A stretch of 64,000 bases of DNA from NCBI GenBank assembly GCA_964443845.1, contig CAYUFA010000009.1, positions 218 to 64,217 of the forward strand. The letters run 5' to 3'. The notes beneath the pieces were generated by a model. It ran no database searches. It saw only the letters and a list, made by a program, of their open reading frames with translations, and was not told the DNA's origin. Positions 6,024 to 14,190 of this stretch are shown here, piece by piece (the stretch's first letter is position 1; every line of letters starts with the position of its first letter). The stretch is from an uncultured Ectothiorhodospiraceae bacterium. Lineage in GTDB: Bacteria > Pseudomonadota > Gammaproteobacteria > UBA9214. A program made the position numbers and the translations under genes.

Positions 6024-6644
6024 ATGCGCTATCAGGGAAAGATTACGGGATGGAAAGACGGTCAGGGTTTCGGGTTTGTCACGCCACACGGGGGCGGGGA
6101 TAAAGCCTTCGTTCACATAAAGGCGTTTGAGAGGCGATCAAGAAGACCTGCCGAGGGAGACATTATCACCTATGAGGTTGCCGTTGACGGAAAGCGCCGG
6201 CTGCGTGCGACCAGGATCCGGTTTTCCCGTGACATCCGGGATACTGCACCAGGCCACAAAGAAAGTTCCCCGGGCATGTACTTTTGCGCAATATTTTGCG
6301 CCCTGTTATTACTGGCCTCGATTCTCGGAAAACTTCCTGTGATCGTACCGGCTGTCTATGGCGCGGCAAGCGTTGTTGCATTTGTCGCATATGCAATGGA
6401 TAAATCAGCCGCCAGAAACAATCGCTGGAGAACCAGTGAGGCCACGTTGCACCTGCTCGCAATCGTTGGGGGCTGGCCGGGCGCATTGCTCGCCCAGAAG
6501 AAACTTCGCCACAAATCCCGAAAAAGGGAATTTCAGACTGTTTTCCGGGTTACGGTGGTCCTGAATTGTTGCCTGCTGGGCTGGCTTTTCACGGAGCGTG
6601 GTGCGTCATTTCTCAACTCCGCCCTTCAGCAGCTTGTTGAATAA
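6024..6644 (+). CDS. cold-shock domain / DUF1294 fusion membrane protein
   Basis: N-terminal CSD (GKITGWKDGQGFGFVTP...AFVHIKAF) followed by TM segments and the KKLRHKSRKREF DUF1294-type region. Confidence 0.75.
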   Translation: MRYQGKITGWKDGQGFGFVTPHGGGDKAFVHIKAFERRSRRPAEGDIITYEVAVDGKRRLRATRIRFSRDIRDTAPGHKESSPGMYFCAIFCALLLLASILGKLPVIVPAVYGAASVVAFVAYAMDKSAARNNRWRTSEATLHLLAIVGGWPGALLAQKKLRHKSRKREFQTVFRVTVVLNCCLLGWLFTERGASFLNSALQQLVE

Positions 6645-7054
6645 CCTTTATACGAGGTCATTATTGCCGTTTGTCAGGGGCAGTTGACCCTTGTCCTGTA
6701 TGTGATCGTCGATCCTGCGGCCTTTGAGGAGGTCGCCATTTCCTGTCATATGTCCTGTAGAGCGTTTTTCAACAAGCTGTTAGTGATGCGGCATCTATTT
6801 CTTCGAGGATCAGAAGGCACTCTCGGCGTTTCTCGAAACCGAGCTGGCGACAACGGTTCCAGTAGCCTACGAGGCAACCGGAATTCGACGGGAGGTCTAC
6901 GAGGTGCTATATCCCCTGTATCCGGAGCGTGGTCCGGTTGCCGGGTAGTAGCGGACTTCGGTGTGCCCCCCACGCCAGCGTGGCCGGCAGGGCCTGCCCC
7001 TGGCCCTGCCGGCCGCGAGCGGAGCGTACGCCAGTAACCGGCAGGTGATCTGAT

Positions 7055-7669
7055 ATGAGTGGATGCTGCGATAACGACTGCTCCCTGGACGCCCTGCGTG
7101 AAAGGCAGCGGGCAACCCTGCAGGTCGTGCTCGTCATCAATGCACTGATGTTCGTGGTCATCGTGGCGGCCGCCGTGTATGGCAATTCAACCGCGCTGCT
7201 GGCCGACAGCCTCGACAACCTGGGAGACGCATTGACGTACGGCCTCAGCCTGTACGTTGTTTCCAGGGGCGCTGTGGCCAAGGCCAGGGTGGCGCTGTTC
7301 AAGGGTGGCCTGATCTTCCTGGCCGCCCTCGCTGTCGTCGCCCAGATTGTCTACCGGGTGATTGTCCCGGGCGTGCCGCTATTTGAGGTCATGGGGGCGT
7401 TCAGTCTGTTCGGTCTCGCCGCCAACTCGACCTGTCTGTTTCTGCTCTGGCGGCATCGCCATGAGGATGTGAACATGAGTTCGGTGTGGGAGTGTTCCCG
7501 CAATGACATCGCAGCGAATCTCTCCGTGTTTGTGGCGGCCGGCCTGGTCTGGATAACGGGAGCGGGATGGCCTGACATCCTGGTCGCGCTGGGTCTTGTT
7601 GCGCTCCTGATGCGTTCGGCCGTGCGCATCATCAGAATGGCCCTGGCGGAGATGCGTGCGGCGGCCTGA
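7055..7669 (+). CDS. cation diffusion facilitator family transporter, transmembrane domain only
   Basis: CDF TM-domain pattern (ALLADSLDNLGDAL...). Only about 204 aa, so the cytoplasmic C-terminal domain is absent. Confidence 0.6.
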   Translation: MSGCCDNDCSLDALRERQRATLQVVLVINALMFVVIVAAAVYGNSTALLADSLDNLGDALTYGLSLYVVSRGAVAKARVALFKGGLIFLAALAVVAQIVYRVIVPGVPLFEVMGAFSLFGLAANSTCLFLLWRHRHEDVNMSSVWECSRNDIAANLSVFVAAGLVWITGAGWPDILVALGLVALLMRSAVRIIRMALAEMRAAA

Positions 7670-7903
7670 CAGGGCCACACGCGCGAACAGCCGAGGCGGG
7701 CGCCCGTCGCCACGCGGCATTCCTGCTGCCGATGTACGCGCGCCGGGCAACGAGGGGGATGTGATGCAAACACCCGAACCAGACGGTGCAGCAAACCTCA
7801 TGCCCGCGCCGGTTCAGCCCGGGGCGGGCAGAATGCTGATCCCGATGTGCGATGCTGCGCTATGCTTGCTGTGTCGTTTTCCCGCATCAGGCAGGTAGAC
7901 GCG

Positions 7904-8620
7904 ATGTCCACATCCATCGGTATCCTCATCATCGGTTCCCTGTACTGGGATGAGCGTGAGCACCGCACATCCTGGCGTGAGCGGCGGCTGCGCACCGAAG
8001 ATGCGGTGCGGGTCCGGGTGCCGATACGATACGGGCGCCGTTCCGAAACCCGGGGTAACAGTTATACAATGGTGTACTCGGGCGAACTCGGCACCTCGGA
8101 TGACACGCTGGGCGTTGCCTGGGTGGTCCCATGCCGGCGGCCGGTCCGGTCTGCAGGTGATCTGTTCGCAGAGGCCGAAGCCTTGTGGGCGGCCGAACAA
8201 CCTCCCGATTCCCGTTGCGGCGGCATCGCTTCGGACTGGGGAGGTGCAGCCATCGTCCGGAATCCCGGTTGTCTCCTGGAGCCGACGATCCAGGAAGCCT
8301 GGGAAGCGCGGGTGGCCGCCGAACAGACCTGCGGCCTGCTGCCTCATGCCGGCAAAGGGGAGCCCCCCGTCGATGCCGCCGGAATACTGAACATTGCCTG
8401 GCCGGCCGGCGCCCCGCCTGAATTTTCCGTACTGCTGGCTGCCGTGACCGCCCCGACACTCCGCGCGGGAAGATACCCGTCCGTGGAGCAGATCGTCGAG
8501 GGGTGGACAACGGCACAGGGCAGCAAGCACCGGAATTACTTCGTCAACAACCGCAAGCACGGAATCCGGACCTTCCAGGACGAAGCGATCGCCCAGCGGC
8601 TCGGTGGTGGTTCCGCCTGA
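7904..8620 (+). CDS. hypothetical protein (possible gamma-glutamyl cyclotransferase-like N-terminus)
   Basis: High GC3 coding frame. N-terminal IGILIIGSLYWDE resembles the YGSL motif of the GGCT/AIG2 fold. The opposite-strand ORF looks like Arg/Gly-rich antisense. Confidence 0.35.
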   Translation: MSTSIGILIIGSLYWDEREHRTSWRERRLRTEDAVRVRVPIRYGRRSETRGNSYTMVYSGELGTSDDTLGVAWVVPCRRPVRSAGDLFAEAEALWAAEQPPDSRCGGIASDWGGAAIVRNPGCLLEPTIQEAWEARVAAEQTCGLLPHAGKGEPPVDAAGILNIAWPAGAPPEFSVLLAAVTAPTLRAGRYPSVEQIVEGWTTAQGSKHRNYFVNNRKHGIRTFQDEAIAQRLGGGSA

Positions 8621-8934
8621 CCTCATTCCGCGTTCGCGTTTGTCTCGTCGGGCGTGAGAATGGCTTCGGGAACGCCTGACATCGACGGTGGTCACACGAT
8701 GCACAGCCGCTGTGGAAGGGTTCGCCGGAATTCAGTCCGGGAGACCGTAACATCGTTAAGGCAACCCGGAACAGGGCATCAGGTAATATCCGGTGTGCGG
8801 ACCTGTCCAGGCAGATGACCGAACCCATGGACAGTCTGCAATCGATTCAGCGCAGGGTGGCTGCGTCAGGGGGGGTGGCGCAGGGTGCCGGCACGATACC
8901 GGTCAATGACAGATCAACAAGACAGAGGAAAGCC

Positions 8935-9960
8935 ATGCACGAGCCACTCGATCCTTCCTATATCATGCAGACCGCGACCGCCTTCTGGGCGTCGAAAGTC
9001 CTGTTGACCGCGGTGGAACTGGAAGTATTCTCCACCCTGGGAGACGGTAACCTGACCGCAACGCAACTCGGCGCCACCCTGGGGCTGCATCCCCGCGGGA
9101 TCTACGATTTTTTTGATGCACTCGTGGCCCTGAAGTTTCTGGAGCGGGATGGAGACGGCCCGGAAGGGAAATACAGAAACACGCCCCAGACAGCGGCGTT
9201 TCTGAACAGGAACAGCCCTGCGTATATCGGTGGCCTGCCGGAGATGCTGAATTCCCGCCTGTTCGGGTTCTGGAACGAACTCGGCACGGCCCTGAAAACC
9301 GGCAGACCGCAGAATGAAACCCGGCATGGCGGCAAGTCGGTCTTCGAGGAGCTGTACGGGAACCAGGCCTCCCTGGGCGAGTTTCTCGATGCCATGACCG
9401 GATTCCAGGCGGCCAACTTCACTGCGCTGGCGGAGAAGTTCGACTTCACGAAATACCGCACGGTCGGCGACGTGGGTGGCGCCCTGGCGCTGCTGTCCCG
9501 GATCATCGCTGCACGCCACCCGCACCTCACGTTCACCAGTTTCGACCTCCCGCCGGTGAAGCCGCTTGCGCAGGAGAAGATCAGGGCAGCGGGCATGGAA
9601 GGACGCATCACGGCGGCGGCGGGAGATTTCTTCGCGGATGACCTGCCGAAGGCGGACGTGGTCACCATGGGCAACATCCTGCACGACTGGGATCTCGAAA
9701 AGAAAAAGATTCTGATCGGGAAGGCCTATGCGGCATTGCCGCCCGGCGGAGCATTCATCGCGATCGAAAACGTGATCGATGATGCCCGCCGGGAAAATGC
9801 CTTCGGGTTGCTGATGTCACTCAACATGCTGATCGAGTTTGGCGATGCCTTCGACTACACCGGTGCGGATTTCCGCAACTGGTGCGGGGCTGCCGGCTTT
9901 CAACGTTTTGATCTCATCCGGCTGGCCGGTCCGACCAGTGCCGTAATTGCCTACAAGTAA
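8935..9960 (+). CDS. class I SAM-dependent O-methyltransferase (Methyltransf_2 type with dimerisation domain)
   Basis: VGDVGGALALLS glycine-rich SAM motif, FDLP, DFF and NILHDW motifs typical of plant/bacterial O-MTs. Start at MHEPLD. Confidence 0.8.
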   Translation: MHEPLDPSYIMQTATAFWASKVLLTAVELEVFSTLGDGNLTATQLGATLGLHPRGIYDFFDALVALKFLERDGDGPEGKYRNTPQTAAFLNRNSPAYIGGLPEMLNSRLFGFWNELGTALKTGRPQNETRHGGKSVFEELYGNQASLGEFLDAMTGFQAANFTALAEKFDFTKYRTVGDVGGALALLSRIIAARHPHLTFTSFDLPPVKPLAQEKIRAAGMEGRITAAAGDFFADDLPKADVVTMGNILHDWDLEKKKILIGKAYAALPPGGAFIAIENVIDDARRENAFGLLMSLNMLIEFGDAFDYTGADFRNWCGAAGFQRFDLIRLAGPTSAVIAYK

Positions 9961-10063
9961 GGTAACCGCCGCTCCGGCCGCAGCGGCGACGCCACGGGGA
10001 GTGACCGGCAGGAGCGTTACAATACCGGGCAACCTTGCAGATAACCGTCGACAGGGGTGATCA

Positions 10064-10612
10064 GTGCGACTGCGGGGCCTTCATCATGTGGAGCTTTCGG
10101 TGCTCGACTATCCGGCATCGCTGGCCTTTTTCGACAGGATGTTCGGCTGGCTCGGCTACAAGAGCTTCTGGACGCTGGATATCGGCTACCGGTCGACCTA
10201 TTACATGGCGCGCTTTCCCTTCCCGCACAGCTATATCGGCATTCAGCCGGCACGCAGCGGCAAGCGGCTGAATCCTGCGGACCAGGCCACGGGCATACAC
10301 CACGTGGCGCTCTGGGCGCGCAGTCGCAGGGAAGTTGACGAGTTTCATGCCGGGTTCCTGCTGCCCAACCAGGTGCCGGTGACGGACCCCCCGTCGGAAT
10401 ACCCGGTGTACACCCCGGGCTACTACGCGGTCTTCTTCGATGACCCGATCACGGGCATTCACTTCGAGCTCAGCCACACGCCGTTCCTGCCGTCGCCGTC
10501 CAGCGTGCTGCGCTGGCTGCGCGCACTGCAGCACGCGCGCACGGAACATCCGGAATGGAAGTCTGCACCCTGGAAGGAGGCCATGCGCCAACTGCCACCG
10601 AGAGAACGGTGA
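10064..10612 (+). CDS. VOC (glyoxalase/bleomycin-resistance/dioxygenase) family protein
   Basis: HHVELSV ... GIHHVAL ... FELSH metal-binding pattern of the VOC fold. GTG start. Confidence 0.65.
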   Translation: MRLRGLHHVELSVLDYPASLAFFDRMFGWLGYKSFWTLDIGYRSTYYMARFPFPHSYIGIQPARSGKRLNPADQATGIHHVALWARSRREVDEFHAGFLLPNQVPVTDPPSEYPVYTPGYYAVFFDDPITGIHFELSHTPFLPSPSSVLRWLRALQHARTEHPEWKSAPWKEAMRQLPPRER

Positions 10613-10893
10613 ATGCCCGGGCGGGTTGCGCCCGCGGAGTCCGGCTGGCCGGGCAACCGAACGGGCACCGGGAAGCTATAGTTACTGCACTGGCGGTATT
10701 CCGTCGCCGGTATGCTGGCCCTGCGATGACTGGCCCGGATCACGCGAATCGAGGCGGGAGTATCCAGGTCCGGCGGCACGGCGGCTTGGCGGTCGCCAGT
10801 CCGGGCCCGGCCTGCGCCTTGATCTGATCGGCGCGCACGGCCGGTTCGACGGCTGTGCCCGTTGCACAGGAACGACAACGAGGAGAAACCGGT

Positions 10894-11475
10894 ATGTCAG
10901 GATTTGGTATTTTCAATGAGAAGGATATCGATGGCCGCTGGTGGATATTTGCACGGCAACAGAAGGACATGTCCTGTGGGCCAGCGTGCGTGAAGATTGC
11001 GAAAGAACTGTATCACAACCGGGCCATCGGTGAGGAAGCGATACGCGGACTCGTGGGCATGCAGTATTCGGGCACGTCGAATACCGGGGAAACGCTGTTG
11101 CAGGCGGCAGCGGTGAGCGATGCCAGGTGGCGGTTGTACGGCGCGATCGAGGACATGGTGCTGCCCGCGGTCAGGCATCAGCCGCTGGCCATTCCGCAGG
11201 CATATTTCGCGCAGGGTATACAGCCGCTGCGCTATGCGTCCCGGAACAGCCCGGCGATCCTCGGTTTCAACTGGGAGACCGGCGGCGGACATTTCGTGGT
11301 ATGTGTCGGTCCGACGCGAACCGATCCGTCATTGTTCGTCATCCTGGATCCGGAAGCAGGCCTGCAGTACCTGTCGGCCGATGAGGCGGTCGGCTACACG
11401 TTCTACTATAGTCCTGCTGCTGCGTACGGTCGCCGGGGACAGATTGATCCGCGCGGTTACATCGTGACCAGCTGA
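10894..11475 (+). CDS. standalone papain-like cysteine peptidase, C39-like domain
   Basis: Q22..C28 (QQKDMSCGPAC), H133 (GGHFVVCVG) and D152 (ILDPEAG) reproduce the C39 Gln/Cys/His/Asp-Pro arrangement. RBS GGAGAAAC before the ATG. Confidence 0.6.
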   Translation: MSGFGIFNEKDIDGRWWIFARQQKDMSCGPACVKIAKELYHNRAIGEEAIRGLVGMQYSGTSNTGETLLQAAAVSDARWRLYGAIEDMVLPAVRHQPLAIPQAYFAQGIQPLRYASRNSPAILGFNWETGGGHFVVCVGPTRTDPSLFVILDPEAGLQYLSADEAVGYTFYYSPAAAYGRRGQIDPRGYIVTS

Positions 11476-11652
11476 CCGGCCGTGATGCGCGGACAGTCCG
11501 GCGCACGATCCGCGGCGGCAGGCGGGCGCAGGCACGGGATGCGGATGTCCGGCGCTGCACTGGTTGCGGAGCGGTGACCGCGCTGCAGTGCCGTGTTTTT
11601 GTGATACGGTTATGCAGGGCTGCCGGTCAGGCATGGACACAGGGAATTGGTT

Positions 11653-11961
11653 ATGGAAGAACTGGAAGTGACCTGGCTGCGTGCCGCCACGGTCTGGTGG
11701 AGCATATTCTGGCGCAGCTTCGTGATTGCCCTGGTAGCCGGGGCCGCAGCCGGGTTTGTCATCGGTATTGCGCTGGCGTCAATCGGCAGGGGGGACCTGG
11801 TCGAGTACTGGGGACGGCTGATCGGCGTGGTGGTCGCCGTGCCGGCCGGTGTCTGGGCGGTCAAGACCGTGCTGGGGAAGGAGTATCGCCAGTTCCGCAT
11901 TGCCCTGGTTCCCTCCGCGGAGGCGCGGCTGGAAAAGGTGGTGCGTGACAACGGGGCCTGA
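11653..11961 (+). CDS. small two-TM membrane protein
   Basis: 102-aa ORF with two hydrophobic helices, immediately downstream of the C39-like gene. GGGA RBS. Confidence 0.45.
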   Translation: MEELEVTWLRAATVWWSIFWRSFVIALVAGAAAGFVIGIALASIGRGDLVEYWGRLIGVVVAVPAGVWAVKTVLGKEYRQFRIALVPSAEARLEKVVRDNGA

Positions 11962-11997
11962 CGGGCACTGCACCCGCGCCTGAGTACACGACCAGCA

Positions 11998-12771
11998 ATG
12001 TCTTCGTCAAACAACCAGCACTGGGACCCGGAGCAATATGCGAAGCACGCAGGTTTCGTCCCGGAACTGGGCCTGCCCGTCGTCGAGTGGCTCGCCCCGC
12101 AAGCGGGCGAACGGATCCTGGATCTGGGATGCGGGGACGGGACGCTTTCTCTCCGGCTGCTCGAGTCGGGCTGCACGCTCGTGGCTGTCGATTCCAGTGC
12201 AGAGATGATTGCAGCGGCCAGATCCCGCGGGCTGGATGCCCGTGTTGCCGATGGACATTCACTCCCGTTCGGGGACGAGTTCGACGCCGTGTTCACCAAT
12301 GCCGCATTGCACTGGATGACCGAGCCGGAGCGGGTCATTACCGGTGTCTGGCGTGCGCTGAAACCCGGCGGGCGCTTTGTCGGTGAATTCGGGGGCTACG
12401 GTAATGTGGCCACCATGGTCGCTGCGCTCGACACGGCGCTGCGCGCGCGCGGGAAAGCGGTCGCCGCTCCCTGGTATTTCCCGCGCGCCGCAGAATACAC
12501 CCTGCTGCTGCAGGCGGGTGGCTTCCTGGTAGCACGCATGGAACTCATCCCTCGTCCCACGCAGTTGCCGGGCGGGATGGGCGGGTGGCTGGAGACGTTT
12601 GCCGGGCCCTATCTATCGGTGCTTGCCCCGGACGAGAGACCGGGTTTTCTGGCCGGGGTGGTGGAGGCACTGCGCGCGGCGCGCTGCACTGCGGACGGCA
12701 CCTGGACGGCGGACTATGTACGCCTGCGGTTTTGCGCGGCGAAACCGGGCCTGGCGGACACGCGAGGATGA
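11998..12771 (+). CDS. class I SAM-dependent methyltransferase (Tam/trans-aconitate MT-like)
   Basis: ILDLGCGDG motif I, acidic loop VAVDSSAEM, and ALHWM motif. Confidence 0.75.
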   Translation: MSSSNNQHWDPEQYAKHAGFVPELGLPVVEWLAPQAGERILDLGCGDGTLSLRLLESGCTLVAVDSSAEMIAAARSRGLDARVADGHSLPFGDEFDAVFTNAALHWMTEPERVITGVWRALKPGGRFVGEFGGYGNVATMVAALDTALRARGKAVAAPWYFPRAAEYTLLLQAGGFLVARMELIPRPTQLPGGMGGWLETFAGPYLSVLAPDERPGFLAGVVEALRAARCTADGTWTADYVRLRFCAAKPGLADTRG

Positions 12772-12779
12772 CTGCGGGG

Positions 12780-13325
12780 ATGAGGCAGGGCTGCCTGGCA
12801 ATGCTGTTCGTAGGGTGGCTCTTTCCCGGACTGGCGACTGCCGGCGGGAACGATTCCATACCCCGGGATGTGGACAGGGTGCTTTGGGAGCATCAGAACT
12901 GGGAGTCGAACGGAGGGTACCGGCGGCTGACCCTGTGGAACGACGGACGCTCGGAAGTCGAGGTGGTGCCACTTGCGAGGGTTCCGGCGGGCGCGCCCGA
13001 ACTGCTGCCGAAGGCGGGCTGGACAGTGGTACAGGAGACCCACCGCATCCGCTTCGTGCGCCGGAACGTCTATCCGCCCGAGGTGGTGCAGGCAAAACTG
13101 CGGGCTGCGGTCAATGCCGGCATTCTGCAACTCGAATCGTTCCGGGCCGGTTATCTGGACGGCAGTGGCACACGCGTCGTCGTGCGGGTCGCCGGCCGGG
13201 ACCGGGAAACCGTCCTCCCGATGTTCGGGGATGCCGACAGGAAGACCGTCAATTATCAACGCTTCGTGGCCGTGTCGAAGGTCCTGGACGGGTTCGATGC
13301 AGATGCCTTCGAGGTTGCAAAATGA
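12780..13325 (+). CDS. hypothetical secreted protein
   Basis: Signal peptide MRQGCLAMLFVGWLFPGLATA. Start is adjacent to or overlapping the preceding stop. No family recognised. Confidence 0.45.
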   Translation: MRQGCLAMLFVGWLFPGLATAGGNDSIPRDVDRVLWEHQNWESNGGYRRLTLWNDGRSEVEVVPLARVPAGAPELLPKAGWTVVQETHRIRFVRRNVYPPEVVQAKLRAAVNAGILQLESFRAGYLDGSGTRVVVRVAGRDRETVLPMFGDADRKTVNYQRFVAVSKVLDGFDADAFEVAK

Positions 13326-13593
13326 GCGCAACCCGCCACGGCGCAGCGGCCGGTGTGGCAGGGTGTTGCCCCTGACCGGTGCACCGTGCCTGCGCGGCGT
13401 GCAGGTGTGTTGCCAGCGTTGATCCGTATCCATCCGGTCCGCCAGTGCAGGAGTTTTTTTTAGGGGAGATCGGCGCATAATAGCCGTCTCCGTGGGGGGT
13501 ACGGCCGCTGGCCGGGCCTGCCCCGGGGCACCGGCGCAACAGGTGACCGATGCCCTGTCATCAACGACCATATAACGAATCCGGAGGAGCAAC

Positions 13594-14190
13594 ATGTCAA
13601 CGACCCTGACACTCTACAGAGGTGAAAAAAACAACTGGTGGCCGGCGCCGGAAATCAGGTTGATGAGCGGGATGACGCTGTACGAGCCCTGGCCCGGCAA
13701 AACCGTGCCGATCCTCTGGGAACAACTCCGGCAGGAAGTCAGTACGCAGCTCGGCCTTTCGCTGCAGGCCAAGACCGCCGCCTATGCCCAGTACCTGCGG
13801 GCAACGGGGCACCCGTTTGCCCTGGCCACGGCATGGACGAACGTCGGTTCTTTTACATCGGATTACAATTACATCATCAAGATCCCCAATGCATACCTGT
13901 TTTACTGGGGGGGCACGAAGACATCGCCGGATATCGGTGAGGCGGTCCCCTCCAGCGAGTACGACAGCGTCACCGGGGATTTCATCGTGCTCAATTCACC
14001 GACGGTGAACGGTTCCACCGTGCTCGGTTTCGGCCACAAGACCGCCACCAGGGAAATCACGTTTTTTCACGATATGCCGCTCAAATACATCGACTCCGTC
14101 AACGGCAAGCCGACCTCGACCCTGAAGCTCAAGAGCTCTGGTGACCTGTCGTTCGATGAAAAGGTCAAATACCGGAAGTTTCTCCGCTGA
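13594..14190 (+). CDS. hypothetical protein in lower-GC patch, with an R/STS/E-like motif spacing reminiscent of ADP-ribosyltransferases (speculative)
   Basis: Good RBS GGAGGAG. LYRGE at residues 7-11, FTS at 88-90, SEY at 121-123. Local GC is lower than the flanks. Confidence 0.45.
   Translation: MSTTLTLYRGEKNNWWPAPEIRLMSGMTLYEPWPGKTVPILWEQLRQEVSTQLGLSLQAKTAAYAQYLRATGHPFALATAWTNVGSFTSDYNYIIKIPNAYLFYWGGTKTSPDIGEAVPSSEYDSVTGDFIVLNSPTVNGSTVLGFGHKTATREITFFHDMPLKYIDSVNGKPTSTLKLKSSGDLSFDEKVKYRKFLR

Follow-up and report, generated by a model that had tools for sequence, protein, structure and literature searches.

EvpQ of Edwardsiella piscicida is a stand-alone protease of 173 amino acids (aa) and of the C70/AvrRpt2 type; its gene lies 513 genes from the bacterium's type VI secretion system (T6SS) and is missing from sister species, and its secretion depends on the T6SS (PMC7991086). 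The Cpe1-class papain-like toxins resemble the C39 domains of ATP-binding cassette (ABC) transporters, and their carriers are PAAR, VgrG, Rhs, or CdiA proteins (PMC12136450). Tox-PLC39 was defined bioinformatically in 2012 (PMC3482391). Here we compare these proteins with a peptidase gene from an uncultured Ectothiorhodospiraceae bacterium. The gene lies in a 64,000-nucleotide stretch of contig CAYUFA010000009.1 (GenBank assembly GCA_964443845.1), all of which we call the window, and it is the fourth of eight + strand open reading frames (ORFs) in positions 7904-14190, which we name g1 to g8 in order. A sequence-only reading of these genes had described an accessory islet with a C39-like peptidase and had raised either a non-canonical substrate or a toxin/processing function. 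We found that g4 encodes a cysteine peptidase of the papain fold whose catalytic set is intact, that it has no conserved partner gene, and that T6SS spike genes lie near some of its relatives. The explanation we favour, and which we consider evenly poised between right and wrong, is that g4 is an orphan effector protease of the EvpQ/Cpe1 type without an adjacent immunity gene.

The peptidase g4 and its family

The g4 protein has no ABC domain, no transmembrane segment, and no signal peptide. When g4 is compared with homologous loci, nucleotide similarity starts exactly at the ATG at 10894 and stops at the stop codon. This fixes the start codon of g4, and it indicates that the shared unit is the g4 ORF alone. 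The AlphaFold2 (AF2) model has a papain-like fold (pLDDT 87.4). Its Foldseek matches in the PDB include AvrPphB (C58), the C39 domain of PCAT1 (probability 0.99-1.0, TMq 0.41-0.44), the papain-like toxin CdiA-CT (8ssm), the Cpe1/Cpi1 pair (9l5u), and AvrRpt2 (C70). Gln22, Ser27-Cys28, Gly130-132-His133, and Asp152-Pro153 are invariant in 26 homologues, and the catalytic residues are also invariant in 30 relatives of a longer form (see below). We propose that Cys28, at the start of a helix, is the nucleophile, that His133 and Asp152 complete the triad, and that Gln22 forms the oxyanion hole. Thus, the full Gln/Cys/His/Asp-Pro set that had been described for this protein, without a transporter domain, is confirmed.

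Whether g4 is a C39 peptidase is another matter. Its score against the Pfam C39 model (PF03412) is 30.5 bits, over the cut-off of 22, and the match covers 46 residues (33-78), which align to model positions 5-49 of 133. The precomputed C39 hits of g4 carry the flag "faint." Against the C70 model (PF12385), g4 has no match at E<=0.1, while three of its relatives exceed the cut-off of 19 bits (P0067 at 25.7, P0070 at 22.2, and P0065 at 20.9 bits) and a fourth, P0054, has a precomputed hit to this model. Across the family, relatives of g4 are near or over threshold on the Pfam models for C70 (AvrRpt2), C39, C39_2, and Gln_amidase ("papain fold toxin 1"), and about equally so. Going by these profile scores, the family appears to sit between the named clan-CA families C39 and C70. 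What stands of the earlier label "C39-like" is a cysteine peptidase with a papain fold and all of its catalytic residues, and membership in the C39 family is not secure.

A closer look at the C39 domains of the PCAT/AMS transporters (ComA, LahT, and PCAT1) gives the same picture. Besides the fold and the full-sequence PF03412 score, g4 shares with them the order Gln-(5)-Cys ... His-(~16-19)-Asp-Pro. Unlike them, it has no fused or neighbouring ABC transporter and no double-glycine substrate, and it matches only part of the model. The spacing from Cys to His is 105 residues in g4 and roughly 78 residues in C39 domains. One stand-alone family member of ~196 aa (P0056) is named at its source as an [quoted passage not shown] which is a misleading automated annotation.

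Like g4, the toxins Cpe1 and CdiA-CT combine a papain fold of the C39-like sort with a Cys/His/Asp triad. They are among the top folds for g4 and, like the g4 family, have spread across phyla by horizontal transfer. Their association with carriers (PAAR, DUF4150, VgrG) holds in our data for relatives of g4 only. On the other hand, Cpe1 is a domain of ~140 aa that is usually fused to its carrier or encoded directly downstream of it and is followed by a cognate immunity gene. In contrast, g4 stands alone, is longer by ~27 residues between Cys and His (where the AF2 model shows three helices), and has no conserved downstream gene; also, a profile of its short form misses Cpe1. Because of these differences, the GyrB/ParE target is not implied for g4.

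We likened g4 to EvpQ by description, not by sequence alignment. Both are small stand-alone papain-like cysteine proteases without a signal peptide (173 aa for EvpQ versus 193 aa for g4). Both are orphan genes that lie away from any T6SS cluster and are absent (in the case of g4, presumably) from related species, and no paired immunity gene has been described for EvpQ or found for g4. The C70 type of EvpQ is also approached by the g4 family: relatives of g4 exceed the C70 cut-off, and AvrRpt2 aligns to the family on both catalytic motifs. The differences are that g4 itself does not match the C70 model and that it lies in no low-GC island and has no tRNA or transposase nearby.

The g4 family is rare. 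A word-seeded search found 54 proteins that belong to it, and an exhaustive profile search found that 218 cluster representatives out of 1.84 billion match the family at E<=1e-3. Family members are either ~190 aa long or, with an extra ~100 N-terminal residues, ~290-320 aa long; none exceeds 384 aa, and fusions to ABC transporters or to long polymorphic-toxin scaffolds do not occur among them. Homologues at 50-74% identity are found in Pirellulaceae, Terracidiphilus, other Acidobacteriota, Saccharophagus, Tropicimonas, and Planctomycetia. Overall, the family is scattered across phyla at about 50-79% identity (60-79% for the ~190-aa subfamily, in Pseudomonadota, Acidobacteriota, and Planctomycetota). 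From such comparisons of sequences, the family appears to move horizontally between phyla as a single ORF. We considered N-terminally extended ORFs at two loci (L012 and L003) as possible fusions and rejected them as low-complexity read-through of high-GC sequence; the true start of these two homologues is the conserved methionine of MSGF/MSGT.

The short and long forms are clearly related (profile–profile comparison with hhalign: probability 100%, E 6e-52), and g4 is 37% identical to the long-form protein P0345 over the whole catalytic domain (E 2e-35). When a long-form profile (from alignment A3) was compared with the PDB, the best sequence matches were CdiA-CT (8ssm, E 1.3e-3) and Cpe1 (9l5u, E 2.3e-3), with ComA and LahT behind them, and these two best matches cover just the His-Asp block, GH[WF]VV...DPw.G. 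A short-form-only profile (A1) gave the alignment to AvrRpt2 at both catalytic motifs. The N-terminal extension of the long forms (columns ~30-200 of A3) has no match in Pfam and comes in two sequence types, one of which bears the motif W..T....RS..L..ID.AL..Y ... W..S.RN...GKGTVE.LL. In P0345, which is encoded right after a PAAR gene at locus L034, this extension may be a loading or adaptor domain.

Gene neighbourhoods of g4 and its relatives

The eight genes recur in this order only where the peptidase is 99-100% identical to g4, on contigs that are one organism sampled in many metagenomes. For comparison, we collected 18 further independent loci with peptidase homologues at 28-79% identity. 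Their hosts are Pirellulaceae, Terracidiphilus, other Acidobacteriota, Saccharophagus, Tropicimonas, Planctomycetia, Arhodomonas, a Rhizobiales isolate, Roseomonas, Thiorhodococcus, and Draconibacterium, besides unbinned contigs. When we compared g1-g8 with the six-frame ORFs of the first 16 loci by BLASTP, and clustered the proteins all against all, the peptidase alone recurred. The gene tables of the later loci held no neighbours similar to the genes of the window, and a manual comparison of the small ORFs upstream and downstream of the peptidase at the g4-family loci found no similarity. The sole match to g6 in these loci is a generic methyltransferase in L016, which lies 2.2 kb from the peptidase homologue on the other strand and is 29% identical. 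No other locus links a homologue of g1 to one of the peptidase. Similarly, no downstream gene that might confer immunity is common to the loci; at most of them, the next gene after the peptidase homologue is on the opposite strand. At one locus (L001, from a metagenome-assembled genome of Pirellulaceae), a secreted protein with a PEP-CTERM-like C-terminal signal (VPEP...RRRRQ) is encoded at 7321-7938, 60 nt upstream of the peptidase homologue, and this neighbour is not conserved at the other loci.

The two-transmembrane protein encoded by g5 had been put forward as an immunity protein or substrate partner of the peptidase. We found no homologue of g5 beside any relative of g4 and none on plasmids. 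A metagenome scan detected just one homologue, a weak match at 1206-1478 of an unrelated contig (L020), where it follows metK (SAM synthetase). As far as such sequence searches tell, g5 is not a conserved partner of g4. Nor did the islet hold up as a functional unit: no relative has the gene set as a conserved unit, and g1-g8 are a series of accessory genes, each acquired individually or specific to the lineage, rather than one system.

These neighbourhoods also bear on the possibility that the genes form a non-canonical module for a bacteriocin or a ribosomally synthesized and post-translationally modified peptide (RiPP), in which the C39 peptidase removes the leader, the two-transmembrane protein is an immunity or substrate partner, and the methyltransferase is a tailoring enzyme. 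The genes are close together and co-directional, as expected for such a module; the peptidase exceeds the Pfam C39 cut-off with its Gln, Cys, His, and Asp in the right order; and g6 is weakly similar to a daptide RiPP methyltransferase (37 bits, far below the NCBIfam cut-off of 175). However, no double-glycine leader-like ORF turned up when small ORFs were scanned on both strands of every intergenic region, just as the sequence-only reading had seen no such precursor. Among the called genes, g1-g8 and their immediate flanks include no ABC or PCAT gene, and the C39 match is limited to the N-terminal third of the model. Furthermore, a homologue of g5, g6, or another neighbour from the window lies next to the peptidase at 0 of the 18 other loci, and the sole g5 homologue is in the unrelated setting after metK. 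We consider a bacteriocin or RiPP module barely credible.

Some relatives of g4 are linked to the T6SS. The gene for the long-form protein P0345 lies 33 nt downstream of VgrG-PAAR within a T6SS cluster from Bacteroidota (L034) that includes ClpV, TssC, three Hcp genes, VgrG, PAAR, TssE, and TssN. In Arhodomonas (L015), genes for DUF2169, a pentapeptide protein, DUF3540, a Tox-PAAR-like protein, and an autotransporter precede the homologue on one strand. A short-form homologue that is 66% identical to g4 (L018) is preceded on its strand, 1.3 kb upstream, by genes for DUF4280 (PAAR-like) and DUF6931, and at a fourth locus (L035) a Tox-PAAR-like gene is 2.6 kb away. In total, T6SS spike or PAAR-type genes are near 4 of 19 loci (within 3 kb for the last three). 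By our rough estimate, in which under 1% of random genes would be that close to a PAAR-type gene, about 0.15 of the 19 loci would be expected by chance.

By analogy, members of the g4 family may behave like T6SS cargo effectors of the EvpQ/Cpe1 kind. For g4 itself, the favoured explanation is that the protein would be exported without a Sec signal, possibly as T6SS cargo, and would then cleave a protein in the target cell. The producer itself would lack this target protein (a foreign one, eukaryotic or other), or else the enzyme would need to be activated in the target cell; AvrRpt2, for example, is activated only inside its target cell. The lack of a conserved immunity gene makes one of these two options more likely, and it argues against a conserved bacterial target. 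More specifically, the ~190-aa subfamily and the long forms together might be an undescribed family of T6SS effectors whose target is absent from bacteria, such as a protein of eukaryotic grazers. This would explain the missing immunity gene, but we consider it unlikely.

Several observations weigh against an effector role for g4. We found no T6SS gene in the 64-kb window, and no gene for a PAAR, VgrG, Rhs, or CdiA carrier. Nor was there any T6SS gene in the flanks that we examined at 15 of the 19 independent loci, or at 11 of the 12 loci of the close 190-aa subfamily. The short form is without the ~100-aa N-terminal domain of the relative that is embedded in a T6SS cluster. Some hosts, such as Planctomycetota, are not known to be typical carriers of T6SS. 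Unlike Cpe1, g4 has no conserved adjacent immunity gene. The structural matches of g4 are weak (TM 0.3-0.44, Foldseek E 1e-3 to 2e-2), and the short-form-only profile found no relative in the PDB at better than E 0.37 and did not detect Cpe1.

Two other roles are compatible with a peptidase that is found by itself. First, g4 might be a cytoplasmic thiol hydrolase that acts on a small endogenous substrate (for example, as a glutathione or gamma-glutamyl-peptide amidase or transpeptidase, similar to papain-fold enzymes of the phytochelatin-synthase type), perhaps together with enzymes of the GGCT/ChaC fold. The absence of a signal peptide and of an immunity gene would be expected for such an enzyme. 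The GGCT-fold gene g1 is 2.3 kb upstream of g4, a bona fide ChaC-like ORF is ~850 nt upstream of a distant homologue in L016, and the precomputed hits of the long-form protein P0089 include weak ones to the Phytochelatin and DUF3335 models. But the linkage to g1 is not seen at any other locus, and a patchy distribution across phyla at 60-79% identity would be unusual for a metabolic enzyme. Also, T6SS spike genes lie near four of the loci, and the closest solved sequences are toxins that cleave proteins. We therefore view a thiol hydrolase as quite unlikely. In the L016 genome (Rhizobiales bacterium YIM 77505), the pair formed by the ChaC-like ORF ("VFGYGSLMWRPGFPF") and the distant peptidase homologue occupies 6081-7052 on the - strand and 7905-8513 on the + strand. 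This places a GGCT-fold gene near a member of the papain-fold family of g4 for a second time, which could be due to chance.

Second, g4 might serve in conflict or defence, as a one-gene protease that works within its own cell once triggered, either against phages or in abortive infection. This would fit with the sporadic occurrence of the gene and its horizontal movement as a single ORF, and with the homologue in L003, whose variable surroundings include an integrase, an HNH gene, and DUF2726. However, g4 has no match in PADLOC or PHROGs, tblastn found no homologue in 72,556 plasmids and 50,697 phage records, a search of a viral fold library returned nothing meaningful, and most of the loci have ordinary chromosomal genes around the homologue. 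A defence role seems very improbable to us. Each of these two roles is less supported than that of an effector protease, and of the two possibilities that the sequence-only reading had raised, toxin function is the better one. Its support is indirect, and comes from the relatives beside T6SS spike genes and from the nearest solved sequences, which are T6SS or contact-dependent inhibition (CDI) toxins.

The other genes of the region

The genes and their coordinates are shown in Table 1. As had been reported, eight co-directional genes lie between the CDF (Cation_efflux) gene and the hyp operon. Independent gene calls on 17 metagenomic contigs with the identical g4 protein gave the same eight genes. 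To the right of g8 is hypE-hypF-hypD-hypB-hypA-hypC, on the minus strand. The sequence is 63.6% GC. In each of g1-g8, GC content at third codon positions (GC3, 0.70-0.81) exceeds that at first and second positions (GC1 and GC2), which implies that all eight are credible genes, including the ORF for the 102-104-aa two-transmembrane protein and the two ORFs without database matches. The composition of the eight genes differs just mildly from that of the flanks: GC3 is 0.78 for the CDF and LysR genes and 0.83-0.86 for the hyp genes, and g4 is the lowest of g1-g8, at 0.70. A gene for a CSD + DUF1294 protein, immediately upstream of the CDF gene, has a GC3 of 0.57, versus 0.70-0.86 in all of its neighbours.

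Table 1. Genes in and beside positions 7904-14190 of the window. Alternative starts are separated by a slash.
Gene	Coordinates	Strand	Description
CSD + DUF1294	6024-6644		Upstream of the CDF gene
CDF	7055-7669		Cation_efflux; left neighbour of g1
g1	7904-8620	+	238 aa; unannotated family; ChaC/GGCT-like fold; unrelated to the peptidase
g2	8815/8935-9960	+	Small-molecule O-methyltransferase; Methyltransf_2 (1.5e-34) and Dimerisation (1.6e-16) in Pfam
g3	10064-10612	+	VOC/glyoxalase-fold protein, marginal; Glyoxalase PF00903, 21.0 bits (cut-off 20.6)
g4	10894-11475	+	Stand-alone papain-fold (clan CA) cysteine peptidase; 193 aa, 21 kDa
g5	11647/11653-11961	+	Two-transmembrane membrane protein; 102-104 aa; GC3 0.81
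g6	11998-12771	+	Class I SAM-dependent methyltransferase (Tam/BioC/UbiE-like); Methyltransf_11 (7.4e-22)
g7	12768-13325	+	185 aa; signal-peptide-like N-terminus MRQGCLAMLFVGWLFPGLATA, then GG
g8	13594-14190	+	198-aa ORFan; no signal peptide

Hallmarks of an island are missing from the region that had been called an islet. A tRNA scan of the window found none, there is no integrase or transposase among the called genes, and the direct repeats flanking the region are short, imperfect matches at chance level. No Rfam family reached its gathering score in the window, and scans for promoters and terminators gave results that were no different from chance expectation.

The GGCT-like label for g1 is reasonable given the fold of its AF2 model (pLDDT 93.7), though the protein has no match in Pfam or NCBIfam. 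Its best folds in the PDB are ChaC (5hwk; Foldseek E 9e-3, probability 0.87, TM 0.42) and ChaC2 (6k95), and the resemblance is weak. The g1 family has over 400 homologues of ~235-250 aa, every one of which is named "hypothetical," and G11-S12-L13, E90, and E98 are invariant in it. On two alphaproteobacterial plasmids, from Mesorhizobium and Paracoccus, homologues of g1 are lone genes, and they adjoin toxin-antitoxin, ScpB, or conjugation genes. Pfam confirms that the region has two methyltransferases (g2 and g6). The length of g2 is 341 or 381 aa, depending on the gene caller, and 8935 is the probable start. The g6 protein resembles trans-aconitate methyltransferase, with a score under the NCBIfam equivalog cut-off. 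The assignment of g3 as a VOC protein survives by a slim margin (Table 1), and g3 also matches part of NCBIfam PRK06724.

As had been described, a two-transmembrane mini-protein follows the peptidase after about 170 nt: g5 starts 171-177 nt past the peptidase stop, and its hydrophobic segments are at residues 17-46 and 55-75. The gap between g5 and g6 is 36 nt, and the start of g7 overlaps the stop of g6 (ATGA). Probably, g5, g6, and g7 are one transcription unit that begins with g5 and encodes a membrane protein, a methyltransferase, and a signal-bearing protein.

Two secreted proteins had been proposed, and the signal-like N-terminus of g7 agrees with this while g8 has none. For g7, there was no match in Pfam, NCBIfam, PADLOC, PHROGs, or plasmids, and its PDB matches were rejected as spurious repeat matches. 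For g8, there was no match in any of these five sources or in the PDB or phages, and it is alone in its own 90%-identity cluster. Its GC3 of 0.77 favours coding, and its GC1 of 0.48 is unusually low for the region. We considered whether g8 might be an ADP-ribosyltransferase-like toxin because of the "LYRGE" near its N-terminus, but we dropped this idea, as no library, PDB, plasmid, or phage match supported it.

Implications for annotation and for the family

The window holds no bacteriocin or RiPP cluster, and g1-g8 are best annotated one by one. If g4 is indeed an effector protease, then labels such as "C39 peptidase" and "double-glycine peptidase domain" steer annotation wrongly toward bacteriocin export. 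The lineage of g4 is unnamed and rarely sampled, and it would be of a kind that is already known: papain-like contact-dependent effectors. Cultured hosts of the family include Arhodomonas sp. SL1, Roseomonas sp. JC162, Thiorhodococcus minor, and Thalassocella blandensis. If the effector explanation is correct, the g4 family would add an immunity-less lineage that crosses phyla to the papain-like T6SS and CDI toxins that were characterised recently (Cpe1, EvpQ, and TsaP). And if its target were of the kind found in grazers, the family would be an environmental counterpart of EvpQ and AvrRpt2.

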